Part shown: positions 3,254-11,283 of the stretch, piece by piece
Numbering within the stretch: the stretch's first letter is position 1
Layout: every line of letters starts with the position of its first letter
IMG/VR virus record: IMGVR_UViG_2537561670_000005
Length of the DNA: 11,526 nt
Source of the DNA: a virus
Lineage: Duplodnaviria > Heunggongvirae > Uroviricota > Caudoviricetes
Strand: one strand, 5' to 3'
The notes under the pieces: model-generated
The model's input: the letters and a program-made list of their open reading frames with translations, nothing else
Told to the model about the DNA's origin: nothing
Database searches by the model: none
Position numbers and translations under genes: made by a program

Positions 3254-3464
3254 AACCACACCGGACGCAGCAGCCGCCGCGCTCACTACGCTGATGCACG
3301 CGCTTATCGATATTGAATGCACTGCAGAGCTTGCGCAGGGAGAAGAACAGAAAGACCGGACACAGTTCGCCCTGGAATGTATCCGATACATCGCAACACG
3401 GTCGCTGAATGACGCTAAAAATATTCTTGTTGCTGATTGTGAAAATGGGGGGGGTTATGCGTGA
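3243..3464 (+). CDS. Hypothetical protein (73 aa), early operon
   Basis: ATG at 3243 with GGAGGGG RBS at 3233-3239 (the track ORF 3189..3464 trimmed to the RBS-supported start); stop overlaps the next start. Confidence 0.6.
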   Translation: MCNKTTPDAAAAALTTLMHALIDIECTAELAQGEEQKDRTQFALECIRYIATRSLNDAKNILVADCENGGGYA

Positions 3465-3678
3465 TGATCGTTTTAATTCCCTGAAACAGGAATTTTCCGG
3501 CGTTCCTGATGATGCGGCTGATGCGCTTTCGTCAATGCCAGAACTTATTAGAGCGGCTTTTTTCTTACTTTCCACGAGAGAATATAAATCAACGGGGCTT
3601 GATGTACTGAATATCGCCGCCGATTATGCTGATTTCGTGACAGAGGTTATTTTAAGAAAAACGACGGACGGGGATTAA
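3457..3678 (+). CDS. Hypothetical protein (73 aa), early operon
   Basis: ATG at 3457 preceded by a G8 run (RBS) and overlapping the upstream stop (ATGCGTGA); an alternative in-frame ATG at 3445 lacks an RBS. Confidence 0.58.
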   Translation: MRDDRFNSLKQEFSGVPDDAADALSSMPELIRAAFFLLSTREYKSTGLDVLNIAADYADFVTEVILRKTTDGD

Positions 3679-3679
3679 T

Positions 3680-3913
3680 ATGCGTGATATTTACCACGAA
3701 ACAATAGACCGCGCATTTCTTGCACTTTCTCACAGTGAAAACATGCTGGAAATATTGCGCATATGGCTTGAAACACTTGGCGACAATGAACGCGACAAAC
3801 AAAAATCAAGAATTGCCACGGCATTAATAACGCTTCTTGAGCCTGTAATAATGGAACTGCAAGAAATAGATCTATTGCACGATAGATATAAAGAACAGCA
3901 CACCGGAGAATAA
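3680..3913 (+). CDS. Hypothetical protein (77 aa), early operon
   Basis: ATG at 3680, 1 nt after the upstream stop, GGGGA RBS at 3669-3673; predicted helical, no recognisable family. Confidence 0.62.
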   Translation: MRDIYHETIDRAFLALSHSENMLEILRIWLETLGDNERDKQKSRIATALITLLEPVIMELQEIDLLHDRYKEQHTGE

Positions 3914-4218: not shown

Positions 4219-5969
4219 AACTGGCACCGAACGTAAAACAGCAGTCACGCGGCATAAAACACAAAGGAACAGAAGTCATTATTTTTGCGGGTAGTGATGC
4301 CTGGGCACACGCGAAACAATGGCAGGAACATGATGCGCGTATGGCCGGAGATAATGAGCCTCCTGTGTGGCTTGGGGAGCAGCAGTTATCAGAACTGGAT
4401 AAGCTGCAAATTGTGCCGGAAGGCAGAAAATCCGTGCGCATATTCAGGGCCGGATATCTTGCGCCAGTAATGATAAAGGCGATTGGTCAGAAGCTGGCGG
4501 CGGCAGGCGTACAGGATGCAAATTTTTACCCTGATGGTATGCACGGTCAGAAGGTGGAGAACTGGCGCGAATATCTGGCCCGTGAGCGCCAGAATCTTTC
4601 TGATGGTCTGGTCATTGAGCTTCCGGTAAAGCAAAAGGCGCAACTTTCGCAGATGGCGGACAGTGAGCGCGCGCAGCTGCTTGCCGATCGCTTTGATGGC
4701 GTTTGCGTACATCCTGAAAGTGAAATCGTTCACGTATGGCGCGGCGGGGTATGGTGTCCGGTCAGCACAATGGAACTTAGCCGCGAAATGGTGGCGATCT
4801 ATTCAGAGCACAGGGCCACTTTCAGCAAGCGCGTAATCAATAACGCCGTGGAAGCGTTAAAAGTTATTGCCGAACCAATGGGCGAGCCGTCCGGCGATTT
4901 GCTGCCGTTCGCCAATGGTGCGCTTGACCTGAAAACGGGGGAATTTTCCCCGCACACGCCGGAGAACTGGATCACCACGCACAACGGCATTGAGTACACG
5001 CCACCAGCACCAGGGGAGAACATCCGCGATAACGCGCCAAACTTTCATAAATGGCTTGAGCACGCAGCCGGAAAAGACCCGCGCAAGATGATGCGTATAT
5101 GTGCCGCGCTGTACATGATTATGGCGAACCGGTACGACTGGCAGATGTTTATTGAGGCCACCGGAGACGGCGGGAGCGGTAAAAGTACATTCACACACAT
5201 AGCCAGCCTTCTGGCAGGGAAACAAAACACGGTAAGCGCTGAAATGACATCGCTTGATGATGCTGGTGGGCGTGCGCAGGTTGTCGGGAGTCGTCTTATC
5301 GTCCTGGCAGACCAGCCGAAATATACAGGCGAAGGAACGGGCATCAAGAAAATCACGGGCGGCGACCCCGTGGAAATTAACCCGAAATATGAAAAGCGTT
5401 TTACGGCGGTAATCAGGGCGGTGGTGCTGGCAACCAATAACAATCCGATGATATTCACCGAACGGGCCGGAGGTGTGGCACGTCGTCGGGTGATATTCCG
5501 GTTCGATAACATCGTAAGCGAGGCAGAAAAAGACAGGGAGCTACCGGAAAAGATCGCGGCTGAAATCCCTGTCATTATCCGCCGCTTGCTGGCGAACTTT
5601 GCCGACCCTGAAAAGGCACGGGCTTTACTCATTGAACAGCGTGACGGTGATGAAGCACTGGCAATAAAGCAACAGACGGATCCGGTTATTGAGTTTTGCC
5701 AGTTCCTGAATTTTCTGGAGGAAGCACGCGGCCTGATGATGGGCGGCGGTGGCGATTCAGTGAAGTACACGACCAGAAACAGCCTTTACCGCGTCTATCT
5801 GGCGTTTATGGCGTACGCAGGCAGGAGCAAACCGCTAAACGTAAATGACTTTGGCAAGGCTATGAAGCCAGCCGCGAAAGTTTACGGACATGAATATATT
5901 ACGCGGAAAGTTAAAGGAGTAACGCAGACTAACGCAATAACAACAGACGATTGCGACGCGTTTTTATAA
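4215..5969 (+). CDS. P4-family phage/plasmid primase-helicase (D5_N-like region plus SF3-type NTPase), replication initiator
   Basis: 584-aa ORF; Walker A GDGGSGKST (nt ~5163-5189), Walker B-like RLIVLADQP, and a D5-N-like stretch (FANGALDLKTGEFSPHTPENWITTHNGIEY). Followed directly by an iteron array, as for PICI pri-rep/ori. Confidence 0.93.
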   Translation: MKLAPNVKQQSRGIKHKGTEVIIFAGSDAWAHAKQWQEHDARMAGDNEPPVWLGEQQLSELDKLQIVPEGRKSVRIFRAGYLAPVMIKAIGQKLAAAGVQDANFYPDGMHGQKVENWREYLARERQNLSDGLVIELPVKQKAQLSQMADSERAQLLADRFDGVCVHPESEIVHVWRGGVWCPVSTMELSREMVAIYSEHRATFSKRVINNAVEALKVIAEPMGEPSGDLLPFANGALDLKTGEFSPHTPENWITTHNGIEYTPPAPGENIRDNAPNFHKWLEHAAGKDPRKMMRICAALYMIMANRYDWQMFIEATGDGGSGKSTFTHIASLLAGKQNTVSAEMTSLDDAGGRAQVVGSRLIVLADQPKYTGEGTGIKKITGGDPVEINPKYEKRFTAVIRAVVLATNNNPMIFTERAGGVARRRVIFRFDNIVSEAEKDRELPEKIAAEIPVIIRRLLANFADPEKARALLIEQRDGDEALAIKQQTDPVIEFCQFLNFLEEARGLMMGGGGDSVKYTTRNSLYRVYLAFMAYAGRSKPLNVNDFGKAMKPAAKVYGHEYITRKVKGVTQTNAITTDDCDAFL

Positions 5970-6970: not shown

Positions 6971-6992
6971 GCCGGAGCAATCCGGCTTTTTT
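6971..6992 (+). terminator. Rho-independent terminator after ssb
   Basis: GCCGGA-gcaa-TCCGGC hairpin followed by TTTTTT. Confidence 0.75.
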
Positions 6993-7140
6993 ACGGGTCC
7001 TCCTGGCGGGGTGGGCCTGAACACGGGGCGGGAGGCGCGGAAAAAAGCGCATTTTTGTGATTTTATCGTCATCATCATCATGAGCGTAATTTATTGTTTT
7101 TAATTGTTTTGATGCAAAAAAGATGATGGTTGTGGTTAAT
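6993..7140 (+). other. Degenerate lambda-like cos-derived segment (cos-like site 1)
   Basis: acgggtcctcctgg (cosQ-like) ... acggggcgggaggcgcgg (cosN-like, GGGCGGGAGGCG in place of the lambda GGGCGGCGACCT) ... cgtcatcatcatcatgagcgtaatttattgtttttaatt, resembling the lambda cosB skeleton (cgtcataacttaatgtttttatttaaaa). The terminator plus cosQ module (6971-7006) is about 90% identical to 9411-9447. Confidence 0.45.
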
Positions 7141-7369: not shown

Positions 7370-7576
7370 ATGGCTGAAGAGAAAAAAGGCGGTGTTTCGG
7401 TGTACATAAGCCCCGACATCGTGAAGGCGCTCAAGGAACGCCACCAGCAGAACGTAAAAGCAGGCATTGCGGCAGGACTTGATCCGCTGGCGATGGTTGA
7501 GCCGTCAACAGGCTGGCAGGTACGCTCCTATTTACGCGCGGCGCTGGGCATAAATCAGACTCATGGGGGTGAATAA
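7370..7576 (+). CDS. Small protein (68 aa), possibly ribbon-helix-helix-like; first gene of the capsid operon
   Basis: ATG at 7370 with GAGGA RBS at 7355-7359; stop overlaps the capsid gene start (TAATG). GGVSVYISPDIVKALKERHQQ resembles a CopG/Arc-type strand-helix motif; assignment tentative. Confidence 0.55.
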   Translation: MAEEKKGGVSVYISPDIVKALKERHQQNVKAGIAAGLDPLAMVEPSTGWQVRSYLRAALGINQTHGGE

Positions 7577-8631
7577 TGGCAGTCAAAGCAATGGCACTTA
7601 ACACACACCAGCTTTTCGCGTACCTGAATCGCGAGGATATTGCGGAATTTAAATTTAGTCCGCTGTTTACCGCGCTGTTTTTCCCGAACGTGGCGACATT
7701 CAACACGCAAAACATCATGCTGGATACCCTGGACATTGAAGAAGTCACCATGTCGGCGTTTTGTTCGCCTATGGTGGGTAGCCAGGTTCAGCGCGATAAA
7801 GGGTACGAAACCAGCACGATTAAACCTGGCTACATGAAGCCAAAGCACGAAATCGATCCAACGAAAACCATCATGCGCATGGCTGGAGAAGATCCGGCAC
7901 AGCTTAACGACCCTACCTATCGCCGTATGCGCCTGATTACTGGCAATATGCGCCGCCAGATAAACGCCATAAAAGCGCGCGTGGAATGGCTGGCGGTAAA
8001 TGCGGTAACGACCGGAAAAAACATCATTGAGGGCGAAGGCATAGAGCGCTATGAAATCGACTGGAAGATACCGGAAAAAAACATCATAGAGCAGGCCGAC
8101 GGGAAAAAATGGTCAGAGCAGGACAAAGAAACCCACGATCCAATCTATGATATCGAACTATACGCCGATCAGGCTGGTTGCCCCGCAAACGTCATGATTA
8201 TGGGCGTTGAGGTATGGCGAACGTTACGCAGCTTTAAAAAATTCCGTGAGCTGTACGATCTTTCCCGTGGTTCAGAGTCCGCCGCAGAGCTGGCCTGTAA
8301 AAACCTGGGCGAAGTGGTGAGCTTTAAAGGCTATCTGGGCGATATTGCCCTTATCGTCTATTCCGGCAAATACACTGACAGCGACGGCACAGAAAAATAT
8401 TTCCTTGATCCTGATTTGCTGGTCCTGGGCAACACCAACAACAAAGGGCTGGTGGCCTATGGTGCGATTATGGATCAGGAAGCGGTAAGAACAGGCGCAA
8501 CGCAAAACATGTACTACCCGAAAAACTGGATTGAGGACGGCGATCCGGCGATTGAGTACGTGCAGACGCACAGCGCACCGCAGCCGGTTCCGGCAGATAT
8601 TCGCAAATTTGTTACCGTCAAAATTGCTTAA
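7576..8631 (+). CDS. Major capsid protein, lambda gpE-like
   Basis: 351-aa ORF alignable along its length to recalled lambda gpE (341 aa): FKFSPLF..LFF, KPGYMKPKHE, DP.YRR.R.I..NMR, W...DK.T.DP..DIE.YA, FRSFK, SYKG..GD.A..VYSG.Y, VLGNT...GL..YG, YPKNW...GDPA.E....SAP. Confidence 0.93.
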   Translation: MAVKAMALNTHQLFAYLNREDIAEFKFSPLFTALFFPNVATFNTQNIMLDTLDIEEVTMSAFCSPMVGSQVQRDKGYETSTIKPGYMKPKHEIDPTKTIMRMAGEDPAQLNDPTYRRMRLITGNMRRQINAIKARVEWLAVNAVTTGKNIIEGEGIERYEIDWKIPEKNIIEQADGKKWSEQDKETHDPIYDIELYADQAGCPANVMIMGVEVWRTLRSFKKFRELYDLSRGSESAAELACKNLGEVVSFKGYLGDIALIVYSGKYTDSDGTEKYFLDPDLLVLGNTNNKGLVAYGAIMDQEAVRTGATQNMYYPKNWIEDGDPAIEYVQTHSAPQPVPADIRKFVTVKIA

Positions 8632-8642
8632 CGGGGGATTCT

Positions 8643-8978
8643 ATGGACACTCCATACATTGAGTTATTTGCAGGCAGTCAGCAGGTATCCACGACGCTGG
8701 TACATTTTGCCGCTGATGCTGGCGTTATTCAGGAATTTACCCCGCTGATGCTGGCGGACAATGGCGAGTTTAAGCCGTGGGATGGTCAGGAATCTGGCAA
8801 GGCTGTTTATCTGACTTCGTACCTCGTGGACACGTCAAAGCAGAAATCAGCACAGTGTTACAAGACGGGGATATTCAATATTGCCGCCGTTAACTGGCCT
8901 GAGAGCGTCGACACCGATGCGAAAAAATGCGCCGCCTTTGCGGGTTCTGGCGTATCCGTTCAGCCGCTGGCCCGATAA
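8643..8978 (+). CDS. Head decoration protein, lambda gpD-like
   Basis: 111-aa ORF, GGGGGA RBS; aligns with recalled lambda gpD (110 aa): TPLMLD/TPLMLA, WDG, YKSG.F/YKTGIF, WPE, KK..AFAG..(I/V)S. Confidence 0.82.
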   Translation: MDTPYIELFAGSQQVSTTLVHFAADAGVIQEFTPLMLADNGEFKPWDGQESGKAVYLTSYLVDTSKQKSAQCYKTGIFNIAAVNWPESVDTDAKKCAAFAGSGVSVQPLAR

Positions 8979-8990
8979 GCAGGGGGAACG

Positions 8991-9404
8991 ATGGCAACGA
9001 ATGAAAGCATCATGGCGCTACCGCTGGCGAGTAAATTTAAAGCCGAAGCGCGGGCAATGGCTGACAGAGGTTTATCAACCTACGAGGCCGTATATCAACT
9101 CAACAAACTGGAAGAGCAGGACAAGCCGCGCGCTGATGCGATTATGGCGCTTCATGAGCATAAAGACTATCAGCCGCTGTTGCGTGCAATGGCAAACGTG
9201 CCTTGTATCGATGTTGATACGGCTAAAAACATCCTGAACATGACCATAGAGCAGGAACGCCCGAAGGTTGCACCAGAGCTTACCGCAGCCTTTGAAAACT
9301 TTATGGACATGCACAGCCCACAAACCGTATCAGCTGGCATGGCATACGATGGCAGAAACCCAGGCGATGACGGCGACATCGATCGCATACTGAAAACCAT
9401 CTGA
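8991..9404 (+). CDS. Hypothetical acidic protein (137 aa), last gene of the capsid operon; candidate scaffold/assembly factor
   Basis: ATG at 8991 with AGGGGGA RBS at 8981-8987; followed by a terminator; no recognisable family. Confidence 0.62.
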   Translation: MATNESIMALPLASKFKAEARAMADRGLSTYEAVYQLNKLEEQDKPRADAIMALHEHKDYQPLLRAMANVPCIDVDTAKNILNMTIEQERPKVAPELTAAFENFMDMHSPQTVSAGMAYDGRNPGDDGDIDRILKTI

Positions 9405-9410
9405 GACAAG

Positions 9411-9432
9411 GCCGGAGAAATCCGGCTTTTTT
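9411..9432 (+). terminator. Rho-independent terminator after the capsid operon
   Basis: GCCGGA-gaaa-TCCGGC hairpin followed by TTTTTT; near-identical to the terminator at 6971-6992. Confidence 0.75.
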
Positions 9433-9510
9433 GCGGGTCCTTCCTGGAATTATGGCCCGTTACGGGGCGGCGACCTCGCGGTTTTTCGCTATTTATGAGC
9501 TTTTTCAGGG
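9433..9510 (+). other. Lambda-type cos site 2 (cosQ + cosN, plus orientation, cosB truncated)
   Basis: gcgggtccttcctgg ... ttacGGGCGGCGACCTcgcggtttttcgctatttatgag matches the recalled lambda right-end/left-end junction (cgggtcctttccgg...ttacg|GGGCGGCGACCTcgcgggttttcgctatttatgaaaa); the 12-nt cohesive-end sequence is at 9465-9476. Downstream sequence diverges from lambda R sites. Confidence 0.8.
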
Positions 9511-9609
9511 GGGTGGTGGTGGTTTTGTTGTTTGCTCTATCTTTATGAATGAAAAGGGAAAGATGCAAACAATACACCAACCTGAAGCAGTAATTAAGTT
9601 GGTGTATTA

Positions 9610-10152
9610 ATGAAATCGCACCTGATGAACAAAAAAAACATGGCGAAAAGCTGCCGTGTAAGTGCGACAGCGTTCGACAAGTGGGGAGTGACTCCCGTTG
9701 AACGTAAAGGCCGTGAGGCGTTTTACGATGTTGCCAGCGTGATAGACAATAGGGTTAACAATGCAATTAGCCAGCTTACAAACGACAAAGGCGATATTGA
9801 TGATGATGAACTCTTACGAGTCAGGATCAGATTACTGACAGCACAGGCGGAGGCGCAGGAACTTAAAAACGAGCGCGATCGCGGTGACGTGATTGATACT
9901 GAGTTTTGCCTGTACGCGCTTTCAAAGCTGGCGAGTCAGATTTCATCAATCATGGACAGCCTCCCGCTTACTATGCAAAGGAGCTTCCCACAGATTACCC
10001 CCGCCATGCTGGATAGGCTTAAAAGGGAAGTGGTTAAAGCCTGTAATGCCAGTGCCAGAGTTGCCGACAACCTCCCACAGATACTGGCTGATTACTTGAA
10101 AGAAACAACCGGAAACGTACCGGAAAAGTTGCTACAGAAGAAAGGCGAGTAA
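9610..10152 (+). CDS. Terminase small subunit, lambda Nu1-like (start uncertain: 9610, 9625 or 9640)
   Basis: 180-aa ORF; strong similarity to recalled lambda Nu1: LTAQAEAQELKNERDRGDVIDTEFCLYALSKLASQISSIMDSLPLTMQRSFP vs RLTRAQADAQELKNARDSAEVVETAFCTFVLSRIAGEIASILDGLPLSVQRRFP; the N-terminus MNKKNMAK... (from 9625) parallels MEVNKKQLA..., and FYDVASVI parallels LYDSAAVI. Weak RBS at all candidate starts. Confidence 0.9.
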   Translation: MKSHLMNKKNMAKSCRVSATAFDKWGVTPVERKGREAFYDVASVIDNRVNNAISQLTNDKGDIDDDELLRVRIRLLTAQAEAQELKNERDRGDVIDTEFCLYALSKLASQISSIMDSLPLTMQRSFPQITPAMLDRLKREVVKACNASARVADNLPQILADYLKETTGNVPEKLLQKKGE

Positions 10153-10169
10153 CAGACGCGCAATTATTG

Positions 10170-10378
10170 AACAAAACTGAGAAACGACATGAAAGCGTCA
10201 TAAATCGCCATTTTAGATGATTACCGTGTCGTTTCTTTTTATTGTGTATCTATTTAAAAACAAATAGTTATGTTCGAGAAGTACCGACATGCTTTTTCCA
10301 GAAAAATTTTCATAAACAGATAAAAACCGCGAGGTCGCCGCCCCGTAACGGGTCCATAATTCCAGGAAGGACCCGACG
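10170..10378 (-). other. Lambda-type cos site 3 (cosQ + cosN + cosB-like R elements), minus orientation
   Basis: The reverse complement reads cgggtccttcctggaattatggacccgttacGGGCGGCGACCTcgcggtttttatctgtttatgaaaatttttctgg...ataactatttgtttttaaatag...aaaagaaacgacacgg...tgtcgtttctcagttttg, colinear with recalled lambda cosQ-cosN-cosB (tttatgaaaattttccgg, ataacttaatgtttttatttaaaa, aaaggaaacgacagg, tgtcgtttcctttctctgtttttg). Confidence 0.8.
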
Positions 10379-10408: not shown

Positions 10409-10690
10409 ATGACAGAAGCCGAAATACTGGGATTAATCCGCCGTGCTGGTGGAATCAGCCAGCAGACTGACGAACAGGCCACGCAGCCGGACAGCGTGAC
10501 AGCCGAAAATTATGCGCGTGTTGTTGCTGAGGTGATGCGCCGTGATGGTATCCAGCTTAATGATGTGGATATGCGCAACATACGGATCCGCGTTCTTGAA
10601 ATGCTGGCCTACAATCGCCGCGTGGCACTGTATCGGGAAACGGAGAAAATTACATACCACTGGAAGAAGCCGGAGCGGTTGCGGCGGTAA
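10409..10690 (+). CDS. Hypothetical protein (93 aa) between inverted cos site 3 and the terminal repeat array
   Basis: ATG at 10409 with weak RBS; basic C-terminus; no recognisable family. Confidence 0.5.
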   Translation: MTEAEILGLIRRAGGISQQTDEQATQPDSVTAENYARVVAEVMRRDGIQLNDVDMRNIRIRVLEMLAYNRRVALYRETEKITYHWKKPERLRR

Positions 10691-10863
10691 CTGGTTGATA
10701 TTTTCGAAATTCGCCAGCGGCGAACATCGGGGAAACCAGCCTAACCCGTTGATATTTTCGGGAACCTCAAATTGAGGAGGTCGGAAACATAACCCGTCAT
10801 ATTCTGGATGCTGATAATTACCACGCAGCCCATTAAGGCCTAACCCGTTGATTCTTTCGGAAA
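10688..10863 (+). repeat. Array of four ~21-bp direct repeats (consensus TAACCCGTTGATATTTTCGG) at ~50-bp spacing
   Basis: taactggttgatattttcgaaa (10688-10709), taacccgttgatattttcgggaa (10742-10764), taacccgtcatattctggatg (10790-10810), taacccgttgattctttcggaaa (10841-10863); a palindrome CCTCAA-a-TTGAGG lies at 10765-10777. Confidence 0.7.
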
Positions 10864-11283
10864 CAGCCATTGGCGTAATCCGGCGCGGTAACTTGCTGAA
10901 CTTAAAGCAAAGCGCAAAATTGCGCTGGCTGGTGGGCATGATGCCGATATGGTGATCCCCATAACGGAAATATCCACCAGCACGGCAACGGCAGAATAGC
11001 CACAACACAGAAAAACCACGAATATGGGGTTTTTGTTATGGCATGGGCATGATGACCGCCCCTGCTCTGAATGGTGGAAATCACCACGCAGATCATCCAC
11101 CAGCTTCGTTTTTATAAATTAAACATCCGGGAAAATCCGACCCTGAATTGTGCATTTTTTCAGCAAATCATTTTAGTTATACGTTTGGTTATACGGTTTA
11201 AAAGTTGAATCATATACATTATTTTAAATCATGAAGTTACACGCTCAATTAAACTACTCTCGTGGACCAAAAATCCCAAGAAA

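Follow-up and report, generated by a model that had tools for sequence, protein, structure and literature searches.

Convergent lambda-type cos sites around the small terminase gene of an EcCICFT073-family island, and inversion of the segment between them

The sequence analysed here, the viral record IMGVR_UViG_2537561670_000005 from IMG/VR, is a stretch of 11,526 nucleotides, hereafter termed the window. It carries two near-identical copies of the lambda-type cosQ/cosN sequence, which face each other on opposite strands with a gene for a small terminase subunit (terS) between them. The island in the window is a Gram-negative phage-inducible chromosomal island (PICI) of the EcCICFT073 family. 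The interpretation favoured here, with modest confidence and at just over an even chance, is that the two copies form a convergent cos module of dual specificity that recombines at cosN. Comparison of related islands reveals an inversion polymorphism: the segment bounded by the two cosN sites is found in either orientation, and the breakpoints fall inside the repeats. Table 1 lists the features and their positions.

Two convergent cos sites with different cosB sequences

Global alignment of positions 9434–9486 with the reverse complement of 10322–10375 gives 53 matching positions and one indel, an extra A in the minus copy (ATGG-CCCG in the plus copy, ATGGACCCG in the minus copy). Weaker similarity between the copies extends to about position 9508. 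A repeat search places the inverted arms at 9456–9505/10303–10352 (50 nt, 88%) and at 9434–9458/10351–10375 (25 nt, 96%). The exact cosN sequence, GGGCGGCGACCT, occurs only twice, once on each strand. When a site with one mismatch is included there are three matches, vs. 0.06 expected, and none of 200 shuffled sequences reaches three. A first-pass annotation, made from the sequence alone, had described an inverted pair of near-identical lambda-type cosQ/cosN copies with a Nu1-like terS between them; the alignment and the two exact cosN sequences agree with this description.

The third cosN-like site is an 11/12 match, GGGCGGCGACCC, inside the primase gene (positions 5357–5368), and it is kept in CFT073 (locus L005, 7384–7395). 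It forms a 17-nt inverted match with the minus cosN and is the only other cosN-like site of the island. It is probably a coding coincidence.

Table 1. Features of the cos module and of the adjoining genes in the window
Feature	Positions	Strand	Basis or remark
137-aa gene	8991–9404	+	directly upstream of the module; phrog_1999 match; anchor for fetching 80 related loci
Terminator-like hairpin GCCGGAGAAATCCGGCTTTTTT	9410–9432	+	ends the capsid operon and abuts cosQ; read from the sequence
Plus outer arm, cosQ (GGGTCCT) and spacer to cosN, alpha variant	9434–9464	+	alignment with lambda, PhiR5_1 and phi4 cos; arm typing
Plus cosN	9465–9476	+	exact GGGCGGCGACCT; positional homologue of EcCICFT073 cos1 (L005 11559–11570)
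Unit found inverted in relatives, both cosN included	9465–10343	.	blastn vs. L006 and L007; clean flips in the rppA and gene-less classes
Putative island-specific cosB, T-type	9477–9609	+	linkage to terS, conservation and repeat analysis
T-type block GGTGGTGGTTTTGTT, invariant	9514–9530 (+50 to +66)	+	sits at the R3 position
T-type block ACACCAACCTGA, invariant	9574–9585 (+110 to +121)	+	
Imperfect inverted partner GTTGGTGTAT	9598–9607	+	repeat analysis
terS, Nu1-family small terminase subunit, 180 aa	9610–10152	+	Pfam, PHROG, pairwise identity
Helper-phage-type cosB, P1	10160–10331	-	alignment to lambda, PhiR5_1 and phi4 cosB
R1-like TGTCGTTTC	10181–10189	minus-strand reading	P1 cosB
R2-like GAAACGACA	10227–10235	minus-strand reading	P1 cosB
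Integration host factor (IHF)-like site between R3 and R2	within 10160–10331	-	IHF consensus, one mismatch
R3-like GCATGTCGGTACTTCTCG	10275–10292	minus-strand reading	P1 cosB
Minus cosN	10332–10343	-	exact GGGCGGCGACCT; homologue of EcCICFT073 cos2 (L005 12298–12309)
Minus outer arm, spacer and cosQ, alpha variant plus one A, hybrid-looking	10344–10375	-	alignment, arm typing
93-aa gene	10409–10690	+	directly downstream of the module; right flank, never inverts; phrog_1561 match

The minus copy (10160–10375) aligns with the cosQ-cosN-cosB region of lambda, PhiR5_1 and CFT073 phage 4, up to ~10 nt before the expected Nu1 start. It shows cosQ, a spacer and cosN, followed by R3, an IHF site, R2 and R1, with R2 and R1 in alternating orientation, as in a lambda-type cos. 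Its cosB, termed P1, has 83.6% identity to the PhiR5_1 cos over 151 nt and resembles the cos of PhiR5_1 and of 21-like phages. The full phage-like cosB that the first-pass annotation saw on this copy is thus confirmed by alignment, and the R-like motifs it quoted are present as an inverted pair (gaaacgaca at 10181–10189 and tgtcgtttc at 10227–10235). No colinear small terminase gene follows the minus cosB, which ends ~8 nt from the stop codon of the convergent terS.

The plus copy departs from phage cos about 30–40 nt past cosN. Its sequence (9434–9609) displays no lambda- or 21-type R elements and diverges from all phage cosB compared after about +40. The first-pass annotation noted only ~25 bp of lambda-like sequence between this cosN and the Nu1-like gene; the plus copy does, however, have a cosB of its own, as ~130 bp of conserved island-specific sequence, termed here the T-type cosB, precede terS. 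The cosQ and cosN of this copy are followed by a colinear small terminase gene, and the terS start is at +146 from the first base of cosN.

The terS product matches the Pfam family Phage_Nu1 with 83 bits (cutoff 30) and phrog_57 at 3e-53 over residues 1–174. It has 35% identity to lambda Nu1 and 41% to PhiR5_1 Nu1. The conservation is strongest in the C-terminal two thirds, which in lambda Nu1 serve oligomerisation and gpA binding. Proteins of the Nu1 family have a winged-helix domain for cosB at the N-terminus and a segment for TerL, the large terminase subunit, at the C-terminus; in the TerS of the window the N-terminal ~50 residues align weakly, with a 19-residue gap.

For a survey of relatives, 80 related loci were collected from IMG/VR with the 137-aa gene as anchor; 65 of these are complete. 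The inner-side sequences next to cosN fall into seven classes, termed T, rppA-linked, X, Y, P1, P2 and P3. Class T has 40 copies, always beside terS, and the rppA-linked class has 21. X is the type of CFT073 cos2, and Y is a T-like relic without a gene. P1 (the class of the window), P2 and P3 are phage-like and keep the R3/R2/R1 layout with different R sequences; there are at least three such P classes, and P2 is a more distant relative of lambdoid cos regions. The observed pairs are T+P1, T+P2, T+P3, RppA+X, RppA+Y and X+Y, each consisting of two different specificities that face each other. A convergent pair is present in 50 of the 65 complete loci (22 with terS, 20 with rppA and 8 gene-less), and the 20-nt cosN core is exact or has at most one mismatch in both copies of all 53 pair-carrying loci. 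Among the other complete loci, 6/65 have a single cos colinear with terS, with no cos2 and the 93-aa gene directly after; 1/65 has a cos2 truncated inside cosN, 1/65 a cos2 with a different cosN, and 7/65 another cosN altogether. Thus most relatives carry the pair, and the arrangement of the window is not a one-off departure from relatives with uniformly single, colinear cos sites.

Several variant loci of this survey may be described here. Locus L063 (4160–4200) has lost the part of cos2 between the terS stop codon and mid-cosN, and the cosQ-side half of cosN remains together with cosQ. Since only the cosQ-adjacent half is kept, the endpoint of the deletion lies inside the cleavage site. Some sister islands (L076–L078 and L084–L087, at about 3440–3800) have a single plus-oriented site with the cohesive end GGGCGGGAGCGG and an X-like cosB. 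In these islands, what appears to be a remnant of a TerS/Rpp-type helix-turn-helix start comes after the site. One locus (L083, about 4330–4400) has a lambda-type plus site together with a minus site of the GGGCGGGAGCGG cosN type.

The T-type cosB is linked to and colinear with terS in 40/40 copies, in either orientation of the module and including two flipped islands. TerS is 94–100% identical among the related islands, and its N-terminus stays essentially the same with every kind of partner site, be this P1, P2 or P3, absent, deleted or truncated, or one with an alternative cosN. Because of this linkage, and because the N-terminus stays constant while the partner cosB varies, TerS of the island most likely has the colinear T-type cosB as its cognate site. 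The phage-like cosB was also considered as the cognate of TerS and was rejected, as TerS and its N-terminus are constant while that cosB changes class or is missing. The first-pass suggestion that terS is inverted relative to its cognate cosB is therefore not supported. The phage-like cosB most likely belongs to helper phages. To judge from the alignments, the minus copy is a complete helper-phage-type cos whose cosB type varies between islands while TerS remains constant.

By sequence and position, the inverted pair of the window is the counterpart of cos1 and cos2 of EcCICFT073. In CFT073 the plus cosN is at 11559, rppA at 11660–12094 and the minus cosN at 12298, with a 77-nt inverted repeat; the published EcCICFT073 cos2 sequence maps to the minus strand. 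The flanks of the window align with the CFT073 flanks right up to the repeats (blastn). In EcCICFT073, either cos1 or cos2 cloned alone renders a plasmid transferable by lambda and phi80; deletion of cos1 strongly lowers transfer, deletion of cos2 raises it, and the double deletion abolishes it (PMC6092414). The proposal of two cleavage sites, raised in the first-pass annotation, fits these published results on the homologous sites. RppA acts by binding TerS of the helper, which it redirects to the cos1 cosB (PMC6739421), and cos-rpp is laid out like cos-terS according to Murialdo & Feiss 2022 (PMC9026076).

CFT073 cos2 (type X; L005 12110–12309) is 97.3% identical over 147 nt to the cos of PhiR12_1 to PhiR12_5. 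The PhiR12 cos is genuine and is located between Rz and Nu1 (PhiR12_1, L088). The lambda and phi80 cosB do not match type X. The original EcCICFT073 papers, which compared the island with lambda, phi80 and phage 4, did not recognise a phage cosB in it; the alignment of X with PhiR12 qualifies this published remark.

TerS of the window shows no similarity to RppA (BLASTP E = 1.4); TerS has 180 aa and a Nu1-like C-terminus, while Rpp proteins are about 135–153 aa long and have no TerL-binding tail. Residues 7–47 of RppA (L005 11660–12094) match the N-terminal part of the phrog_57 small-terminase family, in agreement with the published structural likeness of the Rpp and TerS DNA-binding domains.

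Inversion of the segment between the cosN sites

Complete E. coli genomes were searched with a flip query, i.e. the left junction of the window with 9487–10321 inverted. For the terS type, 486 genomes are native (both junctions spanned) vs. 6 flipped; the rppA type (tested with CFT073) gives 68 vs. 15 and the gene-less X/Y type 44 vs. 3, counts that are affected by clonal sampling and by a slightly different design of the queries for the two orientations. Over the full query, two of the six terS-type flipped matches have 97.8% identity and three have 84%; the sixth has 83% over 81% of the query. For L006 and L007, which are two of these six, window positions 9434–10375 align reversed and the flanks forward (blastn), and the annotation puts terS on the other strand. 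In IMG/VR, the gene-less class is found 4 times (5 with the truncated locus L037) in one orientation vs. 6 in the other, and the left flanks of isomer pairs are 99–100% identical. The cleanest pair is that of WP4-S17-ESBL-08 and HM670 (L089 and L090). The two islands occupy the same chromosomal site and are identical over ~3.7 kb except for the flip, with no mismatch in the flipped 727-bp segment or in the flanking sequence, of which 2083 nt (left) and 927 nt (right) were compared. An invertible segment was one of the possibilities named in the first-pass annotation, and these comparative data support it in that the module is found flipped in related islands. It may be added that strain GF4 (NZ_CP172217.1) has two gene-less X/Y islands, one in each orientation, at about 1,062,772 and about 5,149,008.

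The orientation is the same in every listed full-length match to Nissle 1917 and ATCC 25922 and in all four CFT073 assemblies; therefore this is not a rapid phase variation in ordinary culture. Strong selection for a gene co-directional with the operon was considered on the basis of the 486:6 and 42:0 ratios, and is weakened by the 15/83 flips in the rppA type and the 44:3 ratio in the gene-less type. A switch driven by an invertase was rejected: a recombinase gene is not nearby, the only recombinase being the tyrosine integrase ~8 kb away, and the repeats are cos sites.

The position of the exchange can be seen from the outer arms, which exist in two variants, alpha and beta. In beta-left/alpha-right islands a flip exchanges the inner cosB sequences but leaves each outer arm beside its flank. 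Because of this, the exchange lies inside a core: where the arms differ, it is confined to 25 bp around cosN (CCCGTTACG|GGGCGGCGACCTCGCG, positions -9 to +16). Elsewhere the arms are homogenised, e.g. to alpha/alpha in islands of the HM670 group; in the window an alpha arm is paired with an alpha-plus-one-A arm. In one isomer pair the only differences within the segment are 5–6 nt beyond each cosN (+17/+18). These junction-adjacent changes and homogenised arms look like traces of heteroduplex repair or gene conversion.

The flip may be a homologous exchange, for which cos cleavage or Red functions of the helper are plausible stimuli, or a re-ligation after double cleavage. The latter is chemically possible, by reasoning from the sequence: both ends of the fragment would have the same 5'-GGGCGGCGACCT overhang, and those of the backbone would be complementary to it. 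The arm polymorphisms did not separate homologous recombination from cutting and re-ligation, with the 25-bp confinement on one side and the junction changes and homogenised arms on the other.

Proposed mechanism and alternative explanations

In the proposed mechanism, the island TerS, with a divergent, putatively DNA-binding N-terminal part and a conserved C-terminal part, would bind the T-type cosB and recruit the large terminase subunit (TerL) of the helper to the plus cosN. Island concatemers would then be cut and packaged rightwards from 9465. The minus site would most likely be read by the helper's own unmodified terminase, with packaging leftwards from 10343, and would form a second way into capsids whose specificity is swapped between islands. 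Packaging in lambda is polar, and its termination needs cosQ ahead of cosN. The role of cosQ in termination is also stated in PMC6092414. Because of this polarity, an inverted second site could not terminate a run begun at the first, so that two initiation sites could coexist, while sites in direct repeat would package out an 870-bp deletion. As a by-product, and as the comparison of islands shows, the two sites recombine in a stretch of 25 to about 50 bp with cosN at its centre, and this flips the module. Such flips may arise while a helper drives the cycle: cos cleavage could stimulate recombination, or the doubly cut fragment, with its two identical overhangs, could be ligated back either way. 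The published gain in transfer on cos2 deletion fits the convergent module of dual specificity, since the helpers used (lambda and phi80) did not match cos2, if cos2 is useless or mildly harmful with non-matching helpers.

Several points weigh against this interpretation. EcCICFT073 drew no benefit from cos2 with lambda and phi80, both of which transferred the island better after its deletion (PMC6092414), and this gain is also the main argument for two of the alternatives below, a relic and a decoy. Transfer of the IHE3034 island from its native host was poor, with <=40 transductants per ml (PMC6092414, Table 1). Cos2 is dispensable in that 8/65 complete relatives are without a lambda-type cos2 on the minus strand. 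The assignment of the T-type cosB to TerS is drawn from linkage and conservation in the sequence, and the right half of the T-type inverted repeat is not conserved. The polarity argument for the inverted orientation is by analogy with textbook lambda biology. An identical core of 25 bp is short for RecA, the +17/+18 changes in one pair point to heteroduplex repair, and the orientation counts have the limits of sampling and query design given above.

A rather unlikely but real possibility is that cos2 is a neutral relic or recombination scar, i.e. helper cos DNA gained via the shared cosQ-cosN, with the inversions as occasional accidents. This would account for the 6/65 complete relatives without cos2 and the one with cos2 truncated inside cosN, for the higher rather than reduced transfer after cos2 deletion in EcCICFT073 (PMC6092414), and for the gene-less class, where two cos sites with nothing between them look like decay. 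A relic is not readily reconciled, however, with a cosN core that is exact or one mismatch off in both copies of 53/53 pair loci, nor with a cos2 cosB that retains R3-I1-R2-R1 throughout several specificity classes and reaches 97% identity to living phages. In addition, the pair is maintained across the terS, rppA and gene-less classes, and cloned cos2 is functional and supports the residual transfer when cos1 is deleted (PMC6092414). A decoy function of cos2 is quite improbable. Here a multicopy helper-type cos would soak up or misdirect the helper terminase and so add to interference. By sequence, the TerS binding sites on cos2 are authentically of helper type; the island replicates once induced, and a rise in transfer on cos2 deletion is expected if cutting at cos2 is unproductive (PMC6092414); but cloned cos2 gives productive transfer and not titration alone (PMC6092414), and interference by EcCICFT073 is explained by the binding of Rpp to TerS, with no role of cos2 reported (PMC6739421).

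It is doubtful, but somewhat less so than the decoy, that the convergent pair is a true switch operated by terminase. Both cosN would be cut and the 0.5–0.9 kb fragment re-joined either way, so that a flip would turn terS or rpp off against the capsid operon and make the helper-type cos the leading, colinear one. The island would thereby toggle between a hijacking or interfering mode and a passive mode using the helper terminase; if this were true, the satellite would hedge between interfering with its helper and riding passively. Both orientations do occur in all three classes, including the pair that is otherwise identical over about 3.7 kb, and the exchange is limited to the 25 bp around cosN where the arms differ. 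The overhangs expected from double cutting would, as reasoned above, permit either ligation. A promoter scan predicted no sigma-70-like promoter inside the window segment upstream of terS, and expression may thus depend on upstream read-through; against this, the same kind of scan gives weak promoter-like sites upstream of rppA in CFT073. Frequent switching in ordinary culture is also argued against by the single orientation in the listed Nissle 1917 and ATCC 25922 matches and the four CFT073 assemblies, and the flipped form is rare among terS islands, about 1%. The +17/+18 changes and the homogenised or hybrid arms fit homologous exchange better than precise re-ligation. Finally, inverted repeats can blur the orientation of a segment in short-read assemblies, and many IMG/VR loci come from draft genomes. 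An assembly artefact, as the source of the inverted duplicate or of the alternative orientation, is nevertheless rejected as having a negligible probability: the arrangement of the window is identical in >30 independent complete assemblies (Nissle 1917, ATCC 25922 and relatives), flipped forms are found in complete chromosomes, and in the gene-less class the identical core is 25 bp with arms that differ on both sides, far shorter than a read or a typical k-mer, so that single reads fix the orientation.

The island and its relation to known systems

The whole window is 100% identical to a chromosomal island in E. coli Nissle 1917 and ATCC 25922. In Nissle it adjoins tRNA-Pro and is located between yejM and narP. 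The RefSeq annotation of the identical Nissle locus gives the gene order integrase, helix-turn-helix regulator (alpA-like), Icd-like proteins, P4-family primase, single-stranded DNA-binding protein (ssb), major capsid protein, head decoration protein, 137-aa protein, terminase small subunit and 93-aa protein, and shows no tail or lysis genes. Pfam confirms in the window a lambda E-like capsid protein, a D-like decoration protein and the Nu1-family TerS. The window is syntenic with EcCICFT073 (obtained from CFT073, locus L005), and several proteins are identical, with the same accession numbers. Its gene content is that of a Gram-negative PICI. A TerS-encoding island in strain IHE3034 was listed by Fillol-Salom et al. 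2018 (PMC6092414), and IHE3034 carries the packaging module of the window at ~99.7% identity. The island of the window is thus the TerS-encoding type of the EcCICFT073 family, listed in the literature as the IHE3034 island. High-frequency transfer has been reported for EcCICFT073 (PMC6092414).

Residues 45–119 of the 137-aa protein match the C-terminal end of the head maturation protease phrog_53, so that this protein may act as a scaffold, like Nu3 of lambda. Its gene (8991–9404) and those of the E-like capsid protein and the D-like decoration protein (7576–8631 and 8643–8978) look like a capsid-remodelling set. Deletion of the capsid and decoration homologues in EcCICFT073 gave no phenotype (PMC6092414). 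The CFT073 counterpart of the hairpin at 9410–9432 was picked up by a terminator scan. A third copy of the hairpin, joined to the start of cosQ (GCCGGAGCAATCCGGCTTTTTTACGGGTCCT), is present at 6971–7001, just past ssb; it is 94% identical to 9411–9441, has no cosN after it, and also occurs in L006 and L007. It may be what is left of another cos, or else a terminator module in shared use. Close to the right end of the island, 3' of the 93-aa gene, there are direct repeats of the sequence GCCTAACCCGTTGATATTTTCGG, at 10739–10765 and 10838–10864 (also 10685–10711). They are 89% identical and 99 bp apart; they may represent iterons or have a connection with the attachment site.

The two cos sites, the island family and its TerS-encoding members are already known. 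Relative to the literature found, the new points are the explicit convergent geometry with its conservation, the recognition of cos2 as an authentic helper-type cos that islands exchange, and a separate cosB strictly linked to TerS of the island. The recurrent and clean flip of the segment between the cosN sites seems to be unreported. The first-pass annotation had called the arrangement undescribed. This needs qualification: the two-cos layout was published as cos1 and cos2 of EcCICFT073, while in the main texts of the EcCICFT073 papers as searched, figures aside, the words "inverted" and "orientation" are absent and "opposite" refers only to gene direction. A literature search for inversion at PICI cos sites or terminase-mediated inversion yielded nothing relevant, which is not proof of absence.

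PICIs spread virulence and defence genes, and derivatives of EcCICFT073 are under construction as delivery vehicles. To our knowledge, the role of the second cos site has been unexplained since 2018. A second site that is a genuine helper-type cos, always faces the first and has its specificity exchanged leads to the idea of two independent routes into helper capsids. The clean flips at cosN are a natural case of recombination at a terminase cleavage site, and synthetic PICIs or cosmids with both sites may rearrange. The presence of the island in the probiotic strain Nissle 1917 and the reference strain ATCC 25922 makes these ideas easy to test.

The closest known system is EcCICFT073 (Fillol-Salom et al. 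2018, ISME J, PMC6092414; 2019, Mol Cell, PMC6739421), which belongs to the same family, has the same gene order and carries its module between the 137-aa and 93-aa genes. It also has two convergent lambda-type cosQ/cosN copies, with the plus site followed by an island-specific cosB and a colinear specificity gene. It differs in that this gene encodes a 144-aa Rpp, whereas the window encodes a full-length, dissimilar Nu1-family TerS of 180 aa; with a full TerS instead of Rpp, retargeting would here replace the helper TerS and not form a heterodimer. The cos2 of the window has an obvious phage-21/PhiR5_1-like cosB, while CFT073 cos2 matches the PhiR12 phages.

The window shares with lambda and phage 21 the 12-nt cohesive end, an identical cosQ, the lambda-like spacing of R3, IHF, R2 and R1 on the minus copy, and a Nu1-family TerS. 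These phages have one cos, colinear with Nu1, whereas the phage-type cosB of the window runs into the 3' end of the convergent terS, and the cosB next to terS carries repeats of the GGTGGTGG/ACACCAAC type, which are unrelated to those of the phages. Among the Staphylococcus aureus pathogenicity islands (SaPIs), SaPI1 and SaPIbov1 resemble the proposed use of the plus site in that a satellite TerS and the helper TerL package satellite DNA; the SaPI TerS systems differ in being headful (pac) and not cos. The cos-SaPIs, e.g. SaPIbov5 and SaPIbov4, carry a helper cos as does the window. We know of no SaPI that combines its own TerS-specific cos with a convergent helper-type cos. Two putative cos sites have been reported for SaPIbov4 (PMC6092414).

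The short segment between inverted repeats, found in both orientations, is reminiscent of the Gin/Hin/Cin systems and of the fim switch. RecA-dependent inversions between inverted repeats in lambda were described by Ennis et al. 1987, as cited in PMC12315714. Unlike the invertible-segment systems, the module described here has no associated invertase or recombinase, its repeats are terminase cleavage sites, and its flip appears to be rare and tied to lineages, not a phase variation within a culture.

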